The translations under genes were made by a program, and so were the position numbers. From the NCBI GenBank assembly GCA_964508365.1, contig CAZDTP010000018.1, positions 113 through 64,112 on the forward strand: 64,000 nucleotides of DNA, written 5' to 3'. Below are positions 56,381 to 61,230 of this stretch, piece after piece; position 1 is the stretch's first letter; each line of letters begins with the position of its first letter. Under the pieces are notes generated by a model, which saw only the letters and a list, made by a program, of their open reading frames with translations, was not told where the DNA came from and did no database searches. Source of the DNA: an uncultured archaeon. Lineage in GTDB: Archaea; Asgardarchaeota; Lokiarchaeia; Sigyniarchaeales; SOKP01.

Positions 56381-57088
56381 ATGAAAGGACATAAAATTCT
56401 AAGAGATCATTTTAATACCGTTACATACTCTGAAAATCATTTGACACTATTAAAACAAAAAAGAGAACGATCTAAAAAACTGCTGGAGATGTTCGCTAAA
56501 GAGGGTTTGAATCCATTTTTATATGGTAGTATTGCTCGAGGCGATGTGCATAACGATAGCGATATCGACATTGTTTTAATCCAATCAATCGCTCCGTATC
56601 AAATAGAAGTAATACTCGAAAACAACGGTTTTAATAACTACTTCAGAGAAATTATTATGGCAACTCCTGCTGACACTTTGAAACTCTACATTTATTTAAA
56701 CGAGTTAGAGAGCATAACAATTCCATTATCTAAGTTCGATAAAAAATCAAGAGAATTTTACGATTATGGAGGAAAAATTGATATAAACCAATTAAAAAAT
56801 AGTATTAGAGTGCCTGGAATCGATAAAAGGTTAGTTTTTATTCAACCCATTTCTGATGGTCATGAAGAATATTCGATTATTGGAAACGAAAATTTAGCTG
56901 CAAAGCAGTTGAATATTAGTATTGATTTGATTAATGAAAGAAAAAAAGTTCTTTTAAAGAGAGAAAAATTTGGAAAAACAGGTGTATTTTTAAAGAGATC
57001 AATTGAAATATACGAAACTACCGAAGATGTGTTAAAAAAATTAGCCAATAAAAAATCGATTGTGAGAAAAAAGCTGTTCCAAAGATGA
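56381..57088 (+). CDS. Pol-beta-superfamily nucleotidyltransferase
   Basis: LYGSIARGDVHNDSDIDIVLI, a G-S-x9-D-x-D motif. The stop overlaps the next gene's start (ATGA). Confidence 0.65.
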   Translation: MKGHKILRDHFNTVTYSENHLTLLKQKRERSKKLLEMFAKEGLNPFLYGSIARGDVHNDSDIDIVLIQSIAPYQIEVILENNGFNNYFREIIMATPADTLKLYIYLNELESITIPLSKFDKKSREFYDYGGKIDINQLKNSIRVPGIDKRLVFIQPISDGHEEYSIIGNENLAAKQLNISIDLINERKKVLLKREKFGKTGVFLKRSIEIYETTEDVLKKLANKKSIVRKKLFQR

Positions 57089-58236
57089 GAAATCCAGCGA
57101 TTTTAGAATCTAGAGCACATACATTTTATGTGAAAAAAAAAGGAATCCCTAAAGGATGTCAACAATGTTTAAAGGGTGCCAAAGCAGTATTATTTCTTAA
57201 TGGAATCTGCCAGAATCCAAAACATTGTTGGTGGTATTGTCCGATTTCTGAAAAACGAAAAGGTAAGAAAGATACCTATATAAACGAGATTCAAATATCT
57301 TCTAAAGAGCAGATACTACATGAAATCAAAGCTATTAATGCGAAAGGCATGAGTATTACAGGTGGAGAGCCATTATTTGAACCCAACTTAAAAAAAACGC
57401 TAGAATATATCAAATTCATCAAAGAAAATAAAGGAAAAAAGTTCCATATTCACCTTTACACCAACGGTCTTAATTTTAACGAAGAAATTGCGGCAAAACT
57501 CGCTCGAGCAGGGTTAGACGAAATTAGATTCAACCCTGCAAAAGAAAATTGGAATGTGATTAAATACGCATTAAACAAGGGTATGTCCGTAGGAGCTGAA
57601 GTTCCTGTGATTCCAGATGTGGAATATATAGAAAATTTGAAAAAATTCATCTTTTATGTGAATAAAATAGGTGCAGATTTTATTAATTTGAATGAATTTG
57701 AATATACTTTGCCAAATAGCCAAAACCTTAAGGACCGAAATTTTAAGTTGGAAGCAGGTACAATAGCATCTGTAAAGAATAGTAAAGAATGTGCAATTAA
57801 ACTCATACATGATATCCTTCCATATGTTTCAATAAAAATTCATTTTTGTACGATTATAGCTAAGGATTATTGGCAATTGAGAGAAAGATATTTAAGACGT
57901 GCAAAAACTATTAAATTACCATACGAAGAAATCACGAGAGATGGTTTGCTATTATACGCTCAAATAGAAGGCGAGAAGAAGGACATTAAAGCGTTTTATA
58001 ATCTTTTATTAAATGAGCTAAAAATCCCTCAAAACTTCTTATCTTACGAAATAACTTATATTAAATTACCCATAAAGTTTGCTTTGAAAGAATTTTTTAT
58101 GGATTTACTAATTCAACATAATTTAAAAGGATATATAATAGAAATGATACCGTTTCGAGAAGAAATATATCAACAAATAACGGAAAAAACACCTATAAGG
58201 TTATTCAAAGAAGAGATGGGACTAAATGATTATTGA
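57085..58236 (+). CDS. Radical-SAM-like protein
   Basis: Cys cluster CQNPKHCWWYCP, SITGGEPL, TIM-barrel-like length. The Cys spacing is non-canonical (C-x5-C-x3-C). Confidence 0.55.
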   Translation: MRNPAILESRAHTFYVKKKGIPKGCQQCLKGAKAVLFLNGICQNPKHCWWYCPISEKRKGKKDTYINEIQISSKEQILHEIKAINAKGMSITGGEPLFEPNLKKTLEYIKFIKENKGKKFHIHLYTNGLNFNEEIAAKLARAGLDEIRFNPAKENWNVIKYALNKGMSVGAEVPVIPDVEYIENLKKFIFYVNKIGADFINLNEFEYTLPNSQNLKDRNFKLEAGTIASVKNSKECAIKLIHDILPYVSIKIHFCTIIAKDYWQLRERYLRRAKTIKLPYEEITRDGLLLYAQIEGEKKDIKAFYNLLLNELKIPQNFLSYEITYIKLPIKFALKEFFMDLLIQHNLKGYIIEMIPFREEIYQQITEKTPIRLFKEEMGLNDY

Positions 58237-58672
58237 TACAGTCACTCTTAAAGATTTAGATGAAATTTACAATTTAGAAAGACAATATTTCAAGAAAGAC
58301 TCATTTTCAAAAGAATTAATTTTTAATTTGATAAAAACGAACACATTTTTTTTTAAGCTTATCGATGACGAACTATCGAATAATATTATAGGGTTCATCA
58401 TTATTATTCAAGATCGAGAAGAAAGATTAAACTTGATTAACTTTTTAATTAGAAAGGGGGAAAGAAAAAGAGGTTATGGGAGTTCTCTTTTAAGATATAC
58501 TCTGAAAAAAGTAATAGCATTAGATAAGATAAAAACAATTATATTGAATGTGAACTCTAAAAATAAAGCTGCTATAAGCTTGTATCAAAAATTTAATTTT
58601 CAGATTGTCGAAAGAATAGAAAATTATTATCGGGACAAGCAAAGCGCTTACTTAATGATATTGAACGTTTAA
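58226..58672 (+). CDS. rimI: GNAT N-acetyltransferase (RimI/Ard1-like)
   Basis: R..G.G..LL acetyl-CoA motif (RKRGYGSSLL) and N..A..LY.K.GF. Overlaps the previous gene by 11 nt. Confidence 0.7.
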   Translation: MIIDTVTLKDLDEIYNLERQYFKKDSFSKELIFNLIKTNTFFFKLIDDELSNNIIGFIIIIQDREERLNLINFLIRKGERKRGYGSSLLRYTLKKVIALDKIKTIILNVNSKNKAAISLYQKFNFQIVERIENYYRDKQSAYLMILNV

Positions 58673-58782
58673 TCATTTTCTAAAAACCAAGACTTATAAA
58701 TAAATTCTATTATAAATTTTGTATAGAAAGCATTGATAATGTGTTCAAAAAAAGGAAACAAAAATAAAAGTATTGAGTGATT

Positions 58783-58938
58783 ATGACGCCCTTAGGTACC
58801 GAATTAAAAGATGAAATTAAAAAAGGTGTTACTCTCCAAAAGGTTGACGAGGAAGATATGAAAAAACGTGAAGAAGAGAAAAAGAAGCGAATGGAAGAAT
58901 TAGAAAAAGTTAAAGAAGCCTTAGGAGCAAAAGATTAA
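58783..58938 (+). CDS. 51-aa WH2 / beta-thymosin-like mini-protein (candidate actin-monomer binder)
   Basis: Own translation: MTPLGTELKDEIKKGVTLQKVDEEDMKKREEEKKKRMEELEKVKEALGAKD. Residues 7-20, LKDEIKKGVTLQKV, fit the WH2 pattern L-x3-I-x2-G-x2-L-[KRQ]-K-[VT]. Same strand as its neighbours. Below the ORF-track cut-off. Confidence 0.45.
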   Translation: MTPLGTELKDEIKKGVTLQKVDEEDMKKREEEKKKRMEELEKVKEALGAKD

Positions 58939-59085
58939 ATTTTATCTGTTTTTTGTATTTATTATTTTTTTTCTTTATTCTTAGTTTAACTCACAAATCC
59001 CCAAGCAAAATGCAATTTAAGTGTGTTAAACTTAATTGTTAGTGTTAATTATAAAAATTTAGGAATTTTGAGTTTGAAGTGCCTA

Positions 59086-60159
59086 ATGAAAATTCTGGAT
59101 ATTGATAAGAAGGAGGAAACCATTTCATTAAGAACCGAAGATTTAAACGATCTATGGACACTCTATAATATTATTGCTAAAAATGACCACGTAACGGCAA
59201 GAACAAACCGTAGAATAGTTTTAAAAGAAGGTTCTAAAGGAGAAAGAAAACAAATGAAATTGAAAATAAATGTCGATTCTATTTCATTCCACGAGTTTTC
59301 AAATCGGTTAAGAGTAAAAGGAACTATCTTAGAAGGACCAGAGGATTTTGTTTCGTATGGGACATATCACACAATTAATATAGAACTAGGACTAAAATTA
59401 ACAATTAAAAAACCTAAGTGGTTAAATAGTGAGATTAAACGCCTTAGCAAATCGCCTAGATTTCAAACTGATTTTGTCATGCTAATAATAGCGATCGAAA
59501 CAGGGTTAGCAACAATCGCTCTTATTACAAATTATAGCCATAATAGAATCGCTACTGTAAAAAAAAACATCCCAGGCAAAAGATACGAGCAATCCTATCG
59601 AAACAAAGCTTATGAAGAATTCTATAGTGATATTAGCAACATAATTAAAGAAAAAACAGACAGTATAAACTTAAAAATCATTATAATATGTGGCCCTGGG
59701 AGCACAAAGGATCACTTAACACAATATATTAAAGAAAAAGCCCAAATAACGAGGTTACCGAAAATCGTAAACATTCAAGCTAGCTCTGGAACTGAAAGTG
59801 CAATCCTGGAAACTCTTAAATCAAAAGAACTCAAACTTCTAAAGAAAAATGTTAAAATCTTCCATGAAACTGAGAAAATTGAGGAAATTTTTCAGTTGTT
59901 TAGCACCAATTCAGATTTAATTGCAATTGGATTCGATGAAATCTCGAAAGCTATTGAAAAAAGAGCTGTAAAGGAACTTTTTTGTGCAGATATTCTTATA
60001 AGAGGTGCATCAAAAAAACAGAAATTAAGAATAGAACAATTATTAAACGGTGTAGAATCTTTAGGTGGAGAAATTCATATTTTAAGTAGCGAACACCCAA
60101 CAGGGCAACAAATAATTGATTTGGGATCTATCGTTGCTATTTTAAGATTTAAAATTTAA
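59086..60159 (+). CDS. pelA: Pelota (Dom34 homolog), mRNA surveillance/ribosome rescue
   Basis: MKILDIDKKEETISLRTEDLNDLWTLYNII is a typical Pelota N-terminus, followed by eRF1-like central and C-terminal domains. Start set at ATG 59086 rather than the upstream GTG of the track. Confidence 0.85.
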   Translation: MKILDIDKKEETISLRTEDLNDLWTLYNIIAKNDHVTARTNRRIVLKEGSKGERKQMKLKINVDSISFHEFSNRLRVKGTILEGPEDFVSYGTYHTINIELGLKLTIKKPKWLNSEIKRLSKSPRFQTDFVMLIIAIETGLATIALITNYSHNRIATVKKNIPGKRYEQSYRNKAYEEFYSDISNIIKEKTDSINLKIIIICGPGSTKDHLTQYIKEKAQITRLPKIVNIQASSGTESAILETLKSKELKLLKKNVKIFHETEKIEEIFQLFSTNSDLIAIGFDEISKAIEKRAVKELFCADILIRGASKKQKLRIEQLLNGVESLGGEIHILSSEHPTGQQIIDLGSIVAILRFKI

Positions 60160-60189
60160 GAACTGCAAAATCATAGTATTTATTCTAAC

Positions 60190-61230
60190 ATGAATGGTAA
60201 AATACAATATGTTGATAAAATCTCGAAAATCCCTCTAATGGGGGTAGATTTTCTAGGGATCATTGATAGAGGGACAAATGTAATCGAACTTAAACCACTT
60301 ACTCTTTGCAATCTCCAATGCAAGTACTGTTTTGTAAGTTCTGGTAAATACAACACTAACTTCGTTGTAGATTCCAACTATTTGATTGAAAAAGTTCTAG
60401 ATCTTGTCCAAATTAAAGGGGACTATAGTCTCGAAATTCACTTTTCACCTTATGGAGAGATATTACTTTACAAAGAACTCGAAATTCTTTTAAAAAAACT
60501 CTCAGATATCAAAGGAATCTCAATTATATCAATGCAAACTAATGGCTTATTACTTTCGAAACCAGTTATTGATAAATTAAAAAAATCCAGACTCACTCGG
60601 ATTAATATAAGCTTAAATAGTTTAAAAGAGGAGACAGATTGTTATTTATGTAATTGTACTCAATATGATGTCGACAAGCTTATTAAAAATATATATACGC
60701 TAATGAACTCCAACATACAGGTATTGATAGCGCCAGTATGGTTTCCCGGAGAAAATGACAAGGATATTGAAGAAATTATAGAATTTGTTCTTAATGTGAG
60801 GAATGAAGGATATTCAAAGAGTCAATTACAAATAGGTATCCAGAAATATTTAATTTACAAGACTGGTAGAACTCTAAAAAAAATACAACCAAAATCTTGG
60901 GATTACTTTTATTTATATTTATCAAAATTGGAGAAAAAATTCAATATTAAATTAAAACTCGGACCTAACGATTTTGGAATTCATAAACGAAAACGCGTAT
61001 CAACCTTGAATCTTCAGAAAAATGACTTAATTAAAATAGAAATAGTTTCGAGGGGAAGGTGGGAAAATGAGTGTATTGGTAAAATTAATAATTCTCTTGG
61101 AATAAAGGTATTATTGAAAAAACCCCTTGTTTTTTCGGATGAATTAATTGGAAAAGTTATTGAAGCTCAGGTAATAAAAGCAAATTATAAAGATAATATA
61201 CTCACTGCTTTATTTCCTTATAAATTGTAA
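60190..61230 (+). CDS. Radical SAM protein with a C-terminal TRAM/OB-like domain
   Basis: Canonical CNLQCKYC (C-x3-C-x2-C). Beta-rich C-terminal IKIEIVSRGRWENECIGKI... Confidence 0.7.
   Translation: MNGKIQYVDKISKIPLMGVDFLGIIDRGTNVIELKPLTLCNLQCKYCFVSSGKYNTNFVVDSNYLIEKVLDLVQIKGDYSLEIHFSPYGEILLYKELEILLKKLSDIKGISIISMQTNGLLLSKPVIDKLKKSRLTRINISLNSLKEETDCYLCNCTQYDVDKLIKNIYTLMNSNIQVLIAPVWFPGENDKDIEEIIEFVLNVRNEGYSKSQLQIGIQKYLIYKTGRTLKKIQPKSWDYFYLYLSKLEKKFNIKLKLGPNDFGIHKRKRVSTLNLQKNDLIKIEIVSRGRWENECIGKINNSLGIKVLLKKPLVFSDELIGKVIEAQVIKANYKDNILTALFPYKL

Follow-up and report, generated by a model that had tools for sequence, protein, structure and literature searches.

Between a rimI-like acetyltransferase gene and the gene for pelota, the window, i.e. 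the whole 64,000-nucleotide (nt) stretch of Lokiarchaeial DNA analysed here (contig CAZDTP010000018.1), holds a 51-codon open reading frame (ORF). This ORF is a real gene under purifying selection, confined to the class Lokiarchaeia apart from weak matches, and as far as our tools show, its family has not been described. Judged by its sequence, the first half of the encoded mini-protein is WH2/thymosin-like, and a distinctive, conserved charged helix follows. We propose, at a probability of about 0.55, that the mini-protein is a free-standing WH2/beta-thymosin-like peptide that would bind the Lokiactin monomer one-to-one.

A conserved small gene of Lokiarchaeia

58783..58938, + strand: coding sequence of the mini-protein, 51 amino acids (aa), ATG to TAA; supported by 219 homologues, an open frame across the order and the ratio of nonsynonymous to synonymous substitution rates (dN/dS)

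The start codon ATG stands at 58783 and the stop codon TAA at 58936-58938. An earlier reading made from the letters only (hereafter the sequence-only reading) had placed a 51-aa ORF here, on the + strand with GNAT and pelota genes as flanks, and our translation is identical to its 51 residues; residues 7-20 read ELKDEIKKGVTLQK and are followed by V21, again in agreement. Its description of the ORF as unlisted holds in a relative sense only, as orthologues in public metagenome-assembled genomes (MAGs) have already been called as 'hypothetical protein'. Several copies of the 51-aa protein (cluster P0001/P0003) carry the Joint Genome Institute (JGI) label 'multidrug resistance efflux pump', which is a spurious transfer. 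A family profile search finds a single copy of the mini-gene in the genome, and the window protein matches the family profiles over its full length (profile A1, 105 bits, E 6e-30; profile A5, 78 bits).

A word-indexed search returned 219 hypothetical proteins, which have 48-51 aa, share 71-94% identity with the mini-protein and come without exception from MAGs assigned to Lokiarchaeota or Promethearchaeota. Six-frame whole-genome profile searches over 400 genomes of the phylum find the open frame in 124 of the 134 genomes of the window's family and, at a length of 48-66 aa and with no in-frame stops, in 141-142 of the 153 genomes of its order. None of the seven genomes from other orders of the class Lokiarchaeia has the mini-gene in these searches, and the rest of the phylum gives marginal matches only (2-3 of ~240 genomes, E ~5e-4). 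In a prokaryote census with one genome per genus (36,145 genera), carriers are confined to Lokiarchaeia, save fewer than three weak actinomycete matches. A spread across the Asgard archaea is not borne out, convincing matches being found in one order of Lokiarchaeia and a few marginal ones elsewhere. Both cultured Lokiarchaeia have an orthologue, identified by exact look-up: that of Promethearchaeum syntrophicum MK-D1 is QEE14640.1 (DSAG12_00453), and that of Candidatus Lokiarchaeum ossiferum is WP_371806818.1.

The sequence-only reading had also proposed that conservation and synonymous bias be checked in relatives; the frame is intact in ~140 genomes, and dN/dS against 29 orthologues is 0.04-0.4 where dS is measurable. 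At equal divergence, dN is 3-4 times lower in the mini-gene than in the adjacent GNAT gene. Amino-acid identity at the same locus is 73-98% for the mini-protein, 57-97% for pelota and 41-94% for the GNAT protein.

Anatomy of the peptide and its likeness to WH2 domains

58798..58827, + strand: N-terminal amphipathic helix, residues 6-15, predicted by AlphaFold2 (AF2); G15 ends the helix
58825..58848, + strand: LKKT/V-type extended segment G-V-T-L-Q-K-V-D, residues 15-22; aligns to LKKV of N-WASP, Spire and MIM
58849..58920, + strand: long C-terminal helix, residues 23-46, predicted by AF2 at a local confidence (predicted local distance difference test, pLDDT) of 88-93; ER/K-type charged core K27-R36

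Position statistics were drawn from 47 diverse family representatives clustered at 50% identity. Positions 4, 8 and 12, which lie on one face of the first helix, are hydrophobic in 76%, 98% and 98% of these, respectively; G15 is kept in 94%, L18 in 100%, K20 in 83% and V21 in 77% (hydrophobic in 91%). The conserved positions of the first half (L8, I12, G15, L18, K20 and V21) are those that define WH2, in line with the WH2-like signature that the sequence-only reading had noticed. The motif is LQKV in the window copy and LKKV in family f4 and in many representatives; the canonical LKKV is found in other families of the order, e.g. ELKKAIEAGASLKKVD. Beyond the charged core runs a hydrophobic stripe of L40, V43 and L47: R36 and E39 are invariant, L40 is kept in 96% of the representatives, and positions 43 and 47 are hydrophobic.

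With the family alignment as input, AF2 predicts a helix at residues 6-15, a non-helical segment at 16-22 (VTLQKVD) and a helix at 23-46, with a mean pLDDT of 80.5 and a predicted template modelling score (pTM) of 0.39. The layout of helix, extended LxKV and helix agrees with the beta-thymosin-like character suggested in the sequence-only reading. The hydrophobic patches fall at residues 4-12 and 40-47; on the second helix, M26 alone is close to the loop. The patches are probably too distant for mutual burial in a simple hairpin and so look like surfaces for a partner.

What do profile searches retrieve? When the narrow profile A1 is searched against 177,635 PDB sequences, the tandem WH2 of N-WASP comes first (E 1.3e-4), and the top 10 also holds a second N-WASP chain and the WH2 of MIM; the broad profile A5 ranks N-WASP first and Spire-DDD second. 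Searched exhaustively with HMMER against 1.84 billion proteins, profile A3 yields 69 matches in total. Those from outside the Lokiarchaeal family include P0175 (E 2e-5), with six WH2 repeats that score 80.8 bits with Pfam WH2, and P0179, whose three repeats look WIP/verprolin-like by eye and remain uncertified by Pfam WH2 (11.9 bits, E 0.2). One family member, P0154, passes the gathering threshold of Pfam WH2 (PF02205; 23.1 bits) with 23.7 bits. Others score below it (P0143, 16.5; L086, 14.2; P0139, 14.1; L085, 13.1; P0184, 13.0 bits), and WH2 is often the top Pfam model for these scoring members. The PDB ranking, the retrieval of P0175 and the score of P0154 link the family to bona fide WH2 proteins, as the sequence-only reading would have it. 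Additionally, hhalign aligns A1 to WH2 repeats with 95% probability, and a hidden Markov model (HMM) of WH2 repeats searched against 26,912 ORFs of the genome finds the mini-ORF as its sole match (24.5 bits; next best 8.9); both tests are partly circular because the repeats were themselves found with the family profile.

The evidence with regard to thymosin is of a different kind. In the ESM Atlas, the nearest named cluster is Thymosin (score 0.88), which we take as a lead only. A phmmer search of the PDB with the MK-D1 mini-protein returns no thymosin chain and nothing relevant, and the same search with the whole MK-D1 tandem protein (see below) likewise returns nothing relevant. Foldseek finds no match in the PDB for the 51-aa model, a helix-loop-helix of a size poorly suited to such a test. 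The genome's only match to Pfam Thymosin, L078 (C3:35338-35406, - strand; 12.4 bits, E 0.76), lies inside an unrelated 201-aa ORF and is probably due to chance. A further protein, P0166 (762 aa, on a JGI metagenome contig), is eukaryote-like, with an FHA domain, a PP1-binding domain and two SAP domains; it carries some ten (by eye) 'TPLRNEIKAGxxLRxV' repeats that match the first half of the profile and score 18 bits, below threshold, with Pfam WH2.

Among known systems, the WH2 domain (PF02205; N-WASP, WAVE, MIM, WIP, Spire) is the closest. The mini-protein shares with it an amphipathic helix of 2-3 turns, next a Gly and after that L-x-K-V/T; the aligned N-WASP and MIM segments have the very same spacing, I-x-x-G-x-x-L-x-K-V, and the module likewise occurs singly, in tandem and in multidomain proteins. 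In contrast to WH2 domains, the motif of the mini-protein always precedes a conserved charged helix of ~25 residues (EEKKKRxEEL), the family is archaeal, and the motif is too short to separate homology from convergence. In the census of 36,145 prokaryotic genera, WH2 at the level of the Pfam model belongs mostly to Alphaproteobacteria, Gammaproteobacteria, Babelota and Chlamydiota, and Asgard archaea gave no match. Many members of these WH2-bearing bacterial groups live inside eukaryotic cells.

Like the mini-protein, beta-thymosins (thymosin beta-4, PF01290; Ciboulot, actobindin, tetrathymosin) are free-standing and highly charged, with ~45-55 aa. They share the order of N-helix, LKKT-type strand and C-helix that AF2 predicts for the mini-protein, and they too have tandem-repeat versions. 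By eye, the MK-D1 and L. ossiferum copies even read EIE-x-H-DKS-x-M-x-[KH]-V, similar to EIEKFDKSKLKKT of thymosin. The C-helix of the mini-protein is, however, twice as long as that of beta-thymosins, begins right after LxKV-D and is unrelated in sequence, and the repeat period of the module is ~47 aa rather than ~38.

The only WH2-like Asgard element described so far is the LKKT-like linker of two-domain gelsolins, which touches actin subdomain 1, including an Asp25 that is conserved in Loki actins (PMC9433394; bioRxiv 10.1101/2025.11.30.690169). Unlike the mini-protein, to whose family gelsolin is unrelated, this linker motif has four residues (LVDV or LKDV in Loki), comes without an amphipathic WH2 helix and has no gene of its own. 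The full-text literature searched mentions WH2 in Asgard archaea only as this four-residue motif and describes no free-standing Asgard WH2 peptide, which accords with the statement in the sequence-only reading that such a mini-protein is not an established part of the Asgard actin toolkit.

Fusion proteins, Lokiactin and competing explanations

Tandem proteins: MK-D1, L038:2312-3748, - strand; L. ossiferum, L081:864-2327, - strand; also L039, L040, P0122 and P0168
Profilin fusions, 251-387 aa: L041:1017-1790, + strand; L042:1501-2253, - strand; P0153, P0170 and P0189
Other fusions: L043:1212-2144, + strand; L044:955-2010, + strand; P0167, P0182, P0185, P0176 and P0190

A word-index search for longer fused relatives of the mini-protein subfamily found none; the fusions surfaced in the exhaustive HMMER search. 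The tandem proteins of MK-D1, L. ossiferum and relatives, annotated as hypothetical, have 479-505 aa and 8-11 units of ~47 aa, with 10-11 repeats in each of the two cultured organisms. One stretch within a unit reads, for example, LLEEISQAPQLKKVDEDDLKKYQKEK, and every repeat keeps a helix, LxK[V/I]D and a helix. AF2, with an alignment of six sequences only, predicts 13 long helices with low-confidence loops exactly at the LxKxD segments, and the pTM of 0.22 points to the absence of a compact fold. In the second group, an N-terminal Asgard profilin domain that matches Loki profilin-1 (5zza, E 1e-10; also 7pbh, 5yed and 5zzb) precedes one, two or four modules, after which comes a conserved C-terminal domain of ~50 aa. 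Of all the contextual evidence, these profilin fusions tie the module most strongly to actin. In P0187, a module and the same ~50-aa C-terminal domain stand behind predicted membrane segments in place of profilin. In the third group, the second half of the module joins a leucine-rich repeat (LRR) domain, a Ras/Roc GTPase or a RING domain to a ribbon-helix-helix (NikA/DUF6290-like) DNA-binding domain. The C-terminal helix of the module is retained in all fusion proteins.

In 19 aligned Lokiactin orthologues, the cleft segments YASGRTTG and WIGGSILSSLKTF are kept, as is an acidic Glu/Asp pair that corresponds, by comparison with rabbit actin, to actin positions 24-25. The genome has seven actin-family matches, on contigs C22, C60, C90, C23, C1, C15 and C103 (L001-L007). 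The copy on C60, which the contig end truncates, shares 83% identity with that on C22 (L001:1495-2640, - strand), and the copy that is widespread among congeners is likewise ~83% identical to the latter; by sequence, the C60 copy may be the orthologue of this widespread actin, and the C22 copy, which was used here, may be a paralogue present in some congeners only. Directly downstream of the best actin gene on C22, outside the window, lies L001:211-1458 (- strand), in which a profilin-like N-terminal domain (5yed, E 8e-5; 5zzb, E 2e-4) is fused to a TrmB winged helix (TrmB DNA-binding domain, 45 bits).

From a real gene, conserved motif positions, WH2-like profile matches and the fusions, we infer each of the following steps of binding. 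The N-terminal helix would seat in the cleft that separates subdomains 1 and 3 of actin and would be terminated by G15. The extended V16-x-L18-x-K20-V21 would then follow subdomain 1 as an LKKT/V motif, with L18 in a hydrophobic pocket and K20 opposite the acidic Glu/Asp pair of Lokiactin. In Loki two-domain gelsolin, it is Asp25 of actin that contacts the LKKT-like motif (PMC9433394). The charged helix 23-46 could act as a rigid ruler that takes the L40/V43/L47 patch towards the pointed face, as does the C-terminal helix of thymosin beta-4. The outcome would be a Lokiactin monomer pool that is buffered or sequestered, or monomers that are handed over to filament ends.

Placed behind profilin, a module would provide a second actin contact. 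Such joint occupancy of one actin is reportedly also seen in the VASP GAB-profilin-actin complex. In the trypanosomatid counterpart, profilin and a WH2-like helix are part of one polypeptide, and the Leishmania profilin structure has both together on the same actin monomer (PMC10907219); the Leishmania insertion is internal, whereas the Lokiarchaeal fusions, known from sequence, have C-terminal modules and the added ~50-aa domain. In MK-D1 and L. ossiferum, the tandem proteins would hold several monomers in a row and might be candidate nucleators or filament-side binders, by comparison with Spire, Cobl and VopL. Tandem-WH2 nucleators (Spire, Cordon-bleu, VopL/VopF and Legionella RavH, PMC13481308) similarly have several WH2-type units in a row and are otherwise unstructured or helical. 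They differ in having 2-4 units rather than 8-11 and separate linkers, each long helix of the Lokiarchaeal proteins running into the next unit; no dimerisation or membrane-binding domain is recognised in the latter, and nucleation is hypothetical. If the module binds actin, the fusions of LRR, GTPase or RING domains with ribbon-helix-helix domains would be actin-sensing signalling or transcription proteins.

Taken at its widest, the proposal would be that Lokiarchaeia have their own WH2/beta-thymosin-type family of monomer binders, with a sequestering peptide, profilin-module fusions and 10-11-repeat candidate nucleators or organisers of Lokiactin. We offer this larger scheme tentatively and consider it distinctly less probable than monomer binding by the mini-protein. 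WH2 is regarded as a eukaryotic invention that intracellular bacteria have copied. A WH2-type family in archaea would mean that this minimal actin-binding solution has a deep ancestry or is readily re-invented; actin regulation of the WH2 type would then exist outside of eukaryotes and their parasites, either with an independent archaeal origin or as something older than eukaryogenesis. Among the actin regulators of Asgard archaea, only profilins and gelsolins have been studied so far, and the latest L. ossiferum study names these two as the main ones. The 10-11-repeat proteins would be the first candidates for nucleating or organising Lokiactin filaments, and the peptide, the profilin fusions and the ten-repeat version present in both cultured Lokiarchaeia would offer three direct experimental handles on Lokiactin nucleation and monomer buffering. 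Even without actin binding, the mini-protein is among the most conserved small proteins of Lokiarchaeia, and its module is promiscuous.

Several observations weigh against binding of Lokiactin by the mini-protein. The sequence-only reading had cautioned that a short motif in K/E-rich sequence could be fortuitous, and this caution is justified for the motif by itself: a strict WH2 regular expression, [LMIVF]xxx[ILVM][KR]xG[VILFA]xLx[KR][VT], searched in six-frame ORFs of at least 40 aa (2.53 million residues), matches once genome-wide, in the mini-ORF, where ~0.6 matches per genome are expected from composition. The Pfam WH2 and Thymosin (PF01290) models, whose use had been suggested, leave the window's own copy unscored at E<=10, as does TMA7, and a six-frame scan of the genome with PF02205 is without a match. 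Individual repeats score only 6-9 bits against the PDB WH2 chains, so that the significance of the profile searches rests on the sum over tandem repeats and on the enrichment of WH2 among very few matches. The acidic and basic continuation after the motif had been read as part of the WH2 match; the strongest conservation of the peptide (R36, E39, L40, K33 and K35) lies there, in the charged C-terminal helix, which has neither a WH2 nor a thymosin counterpart. Within the first half, K or Q stands where the canonical LLxxI helix has its second hydrophobic residue. The C-terminal half of the module, often without a clear N-helix, recurs alongside LRR, Ras/Roc GTPase, RING and ribbon-helix-helix domains, none of which is known to be linked to actin. 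The mini-gene's neighbours are translation or housekeeping genes, none of them cytoskeletal. Finally, the family is limited to one order of Lokiarchaeia, whereas Lokiactin is far more widespread. This restriction argues against direct descent into eukaryotic WH2, and we consider convergence with the eukaryotic domain at least as likely as common ancestry. Conservation, profile-level similarity and domain fusions nonetheless raise the resemblance to WH2 above chance, which the motif alone does not.

The most serious competing explanation is that the conserved unit is a generic charged-helix adaptor: an ER/K-type single alpha-helix with a short hydrophobic end (approximately residues 18-47) that many multidomain proteins of Lokiarchaeia would use as a rigid spacer or for oligomerisation or docking. 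On its own, the mini-protein would regulate or cap such interactions, and the WH2 look of residues 4-21 would be convergent or fortuitous. The promiscuity implied by the LRR, GTPase and RING fusions is the main support for such an adaptor; the partners are heterogeneous, ranging from LRR, Ras/Roc GTPase, RING and ribbon-helix-helix domains to transmembrane segments and profilin, and several fusions match profile positions 10-47 or 15-47 only. The invariant or nearly invariant residues are R36, E39 and L40, the spacing of E30-32 and K33-R36 is that of ER/K single helices, and the WH2 motif alone is within chance expectation. Residues 27-39 (KKREEEKKKRMEE), with their i/i+4 Glu-Lys/Arg pattern, and the long, high-confidence AF2 helix do resemble ER/K single alpha-helices, a likeness of physical type and not a family assignment; such helices show no position-specific conservation, whereas R36, E39 and L40 are fixed here. 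A pure spacer also leaves the near-invariant L8, I12, G15, L18, K20 and V21 of the free-standing proteins unexplained. Unbiased profile searches repeatedly retrieve WH2 proteins, P0154 exceeds the Pfam WH2 threshold, all tandem repeats keep helix, LxK[V/I]D and helix, and profilin is the only partner that recurs in three architectures. On balance, we consider the adaptor unlikely, and still a rival to be taken seriously.

Could the partner be cytoskeletal or structural but different, with the WH2 look misleading as to the target? The peptide might bind the sides of Lokiactin filaments, or an Asgard tubulin in the manner of stathmin, whose long K/E-rich helix binds tubulin. The long charged helix dominates conservation, the tandem proteins are predicted as strings of helices of 30-40 residues, and no cytoskeletal neighbours constrain the choice of target; nebulin-type binders of filament sides use a comparable helix-string geometry. 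Against such a partner, searches of Pfam, the PDB and the Atlas connect the family neither by sequence nor by profile with stathmin, nebulin or any tubulin binder, and the fusion to profilin, which binds monomers, favours G-actin. We regard this explanation as improbable, more so than the adaptor.

The locus and its neighbours

58226..58672, + strand: GNAT (rimI-like) acetyltransferase, 5' neighbour; Pfam Acetyltransf_1, 50.9 bits
58682..58726, + strand: conserved upstream element, 45 nt, 57-100 nt 5' of the ATG; core ACTTATAAATAAATTCTATTATAA at 58692-58715
58775..58781, + strand: Shine-Dalgarno-like GAGTGAT, separated from the ATG by 1 nt (58782); putative role, judged from sequence
58940..58980, + strand: T-rich tract, resembling an archaeal terminator; T6 at 58949-58954 and T8 at 58965-58972
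59086..60159, + strand: pelota (eRF1 domains 1-3), 3' neighbour; Pfam eRF1_1/2/3

The 24-nt core of the upstream element is nearly invariant in 15 orthologous loci from two genera, with one substitution each in three loci, and the intergenic DNA around the element diverges among the same loci. Neither the window nor the rest of the genome holds a second copy of the element, and an Rfam scan of 58400-59200 gives a sub-threshold chance match only and no family for it. It is probably the promoter of the mini-gene, comprising a transcription factor B recognition element (BRE) and a TATA box; a regulator site would be the alternative. A GTTGAG-type stretch is kept 5' of the start codon in orthologues. 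The mini-gene is separated by 110 nt from the GNAT gene and by 147 nt from pelota, and this latter gap, together with the T-rich tract, suggests a separate transcription unit. The one RNA run that overlaps the stretch covers part of pelota and some T-rich sequence of low complexity, and does not reach the mini-ORF.

One radical-SAM gene stands on each outer flank. The order radical-SAM, GNAT, mini-gene, pelota, radical-SAM (57085-61230 in the window) is conserved throughout the window's family and, in part, in two further families, and GNAT, mini-gene and pelota follow one another in three of the four families of the order. Pelota is syntenic in most genomes of the order and is not within ~1.2 kb of the mini-gene in MK-D1 or L. 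ossiferum, synteny being lost around the MK-D1 orthologue and partly lost in L. ossiferum. The neighbourhoods of the tandem and profilin-fusion genes hold CheB, a methyltransferase, an AsnC regulator and a UPF0182 protein, and none of these neighbours is cytoskeletal.

The kept gene order invites the explanation that the mini-protein is a small factor linked to translation, acting with the N-acetyltransferase and pelota, for example a K/E-rich ribosome-associated protein of the TMA7 type. The C-terminal half (DEED...KK...EEL...K...G) looks TMA7-like by eye. The Pfam TMA7 model (PF09072) finds no match at E<=10 either in the genome or on the protein, and identity with TMA7 is rejected. We weight this explanation low, slightly below that of another cytoskeletal partner, because the mini-gene has its own conserved upstream element; it also has its own T-rich stop region and gaps to both neighbours, synteny is lost or partly lost in the two cultured organisms, and no fusion has a translational partner. 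Lastly, a chance ORF in AT-rich intergenic DNA might be suspected from the shortness of the frame, its K/E-rich composition, the AT-rich genome and the absence of RNA coverage, but frame conservation in ~140 genomes and the synonymous excess, along with conservation above that of the flanking genes and homologues in both cultured Lokiarchaeia, rule it out for practical purposes.

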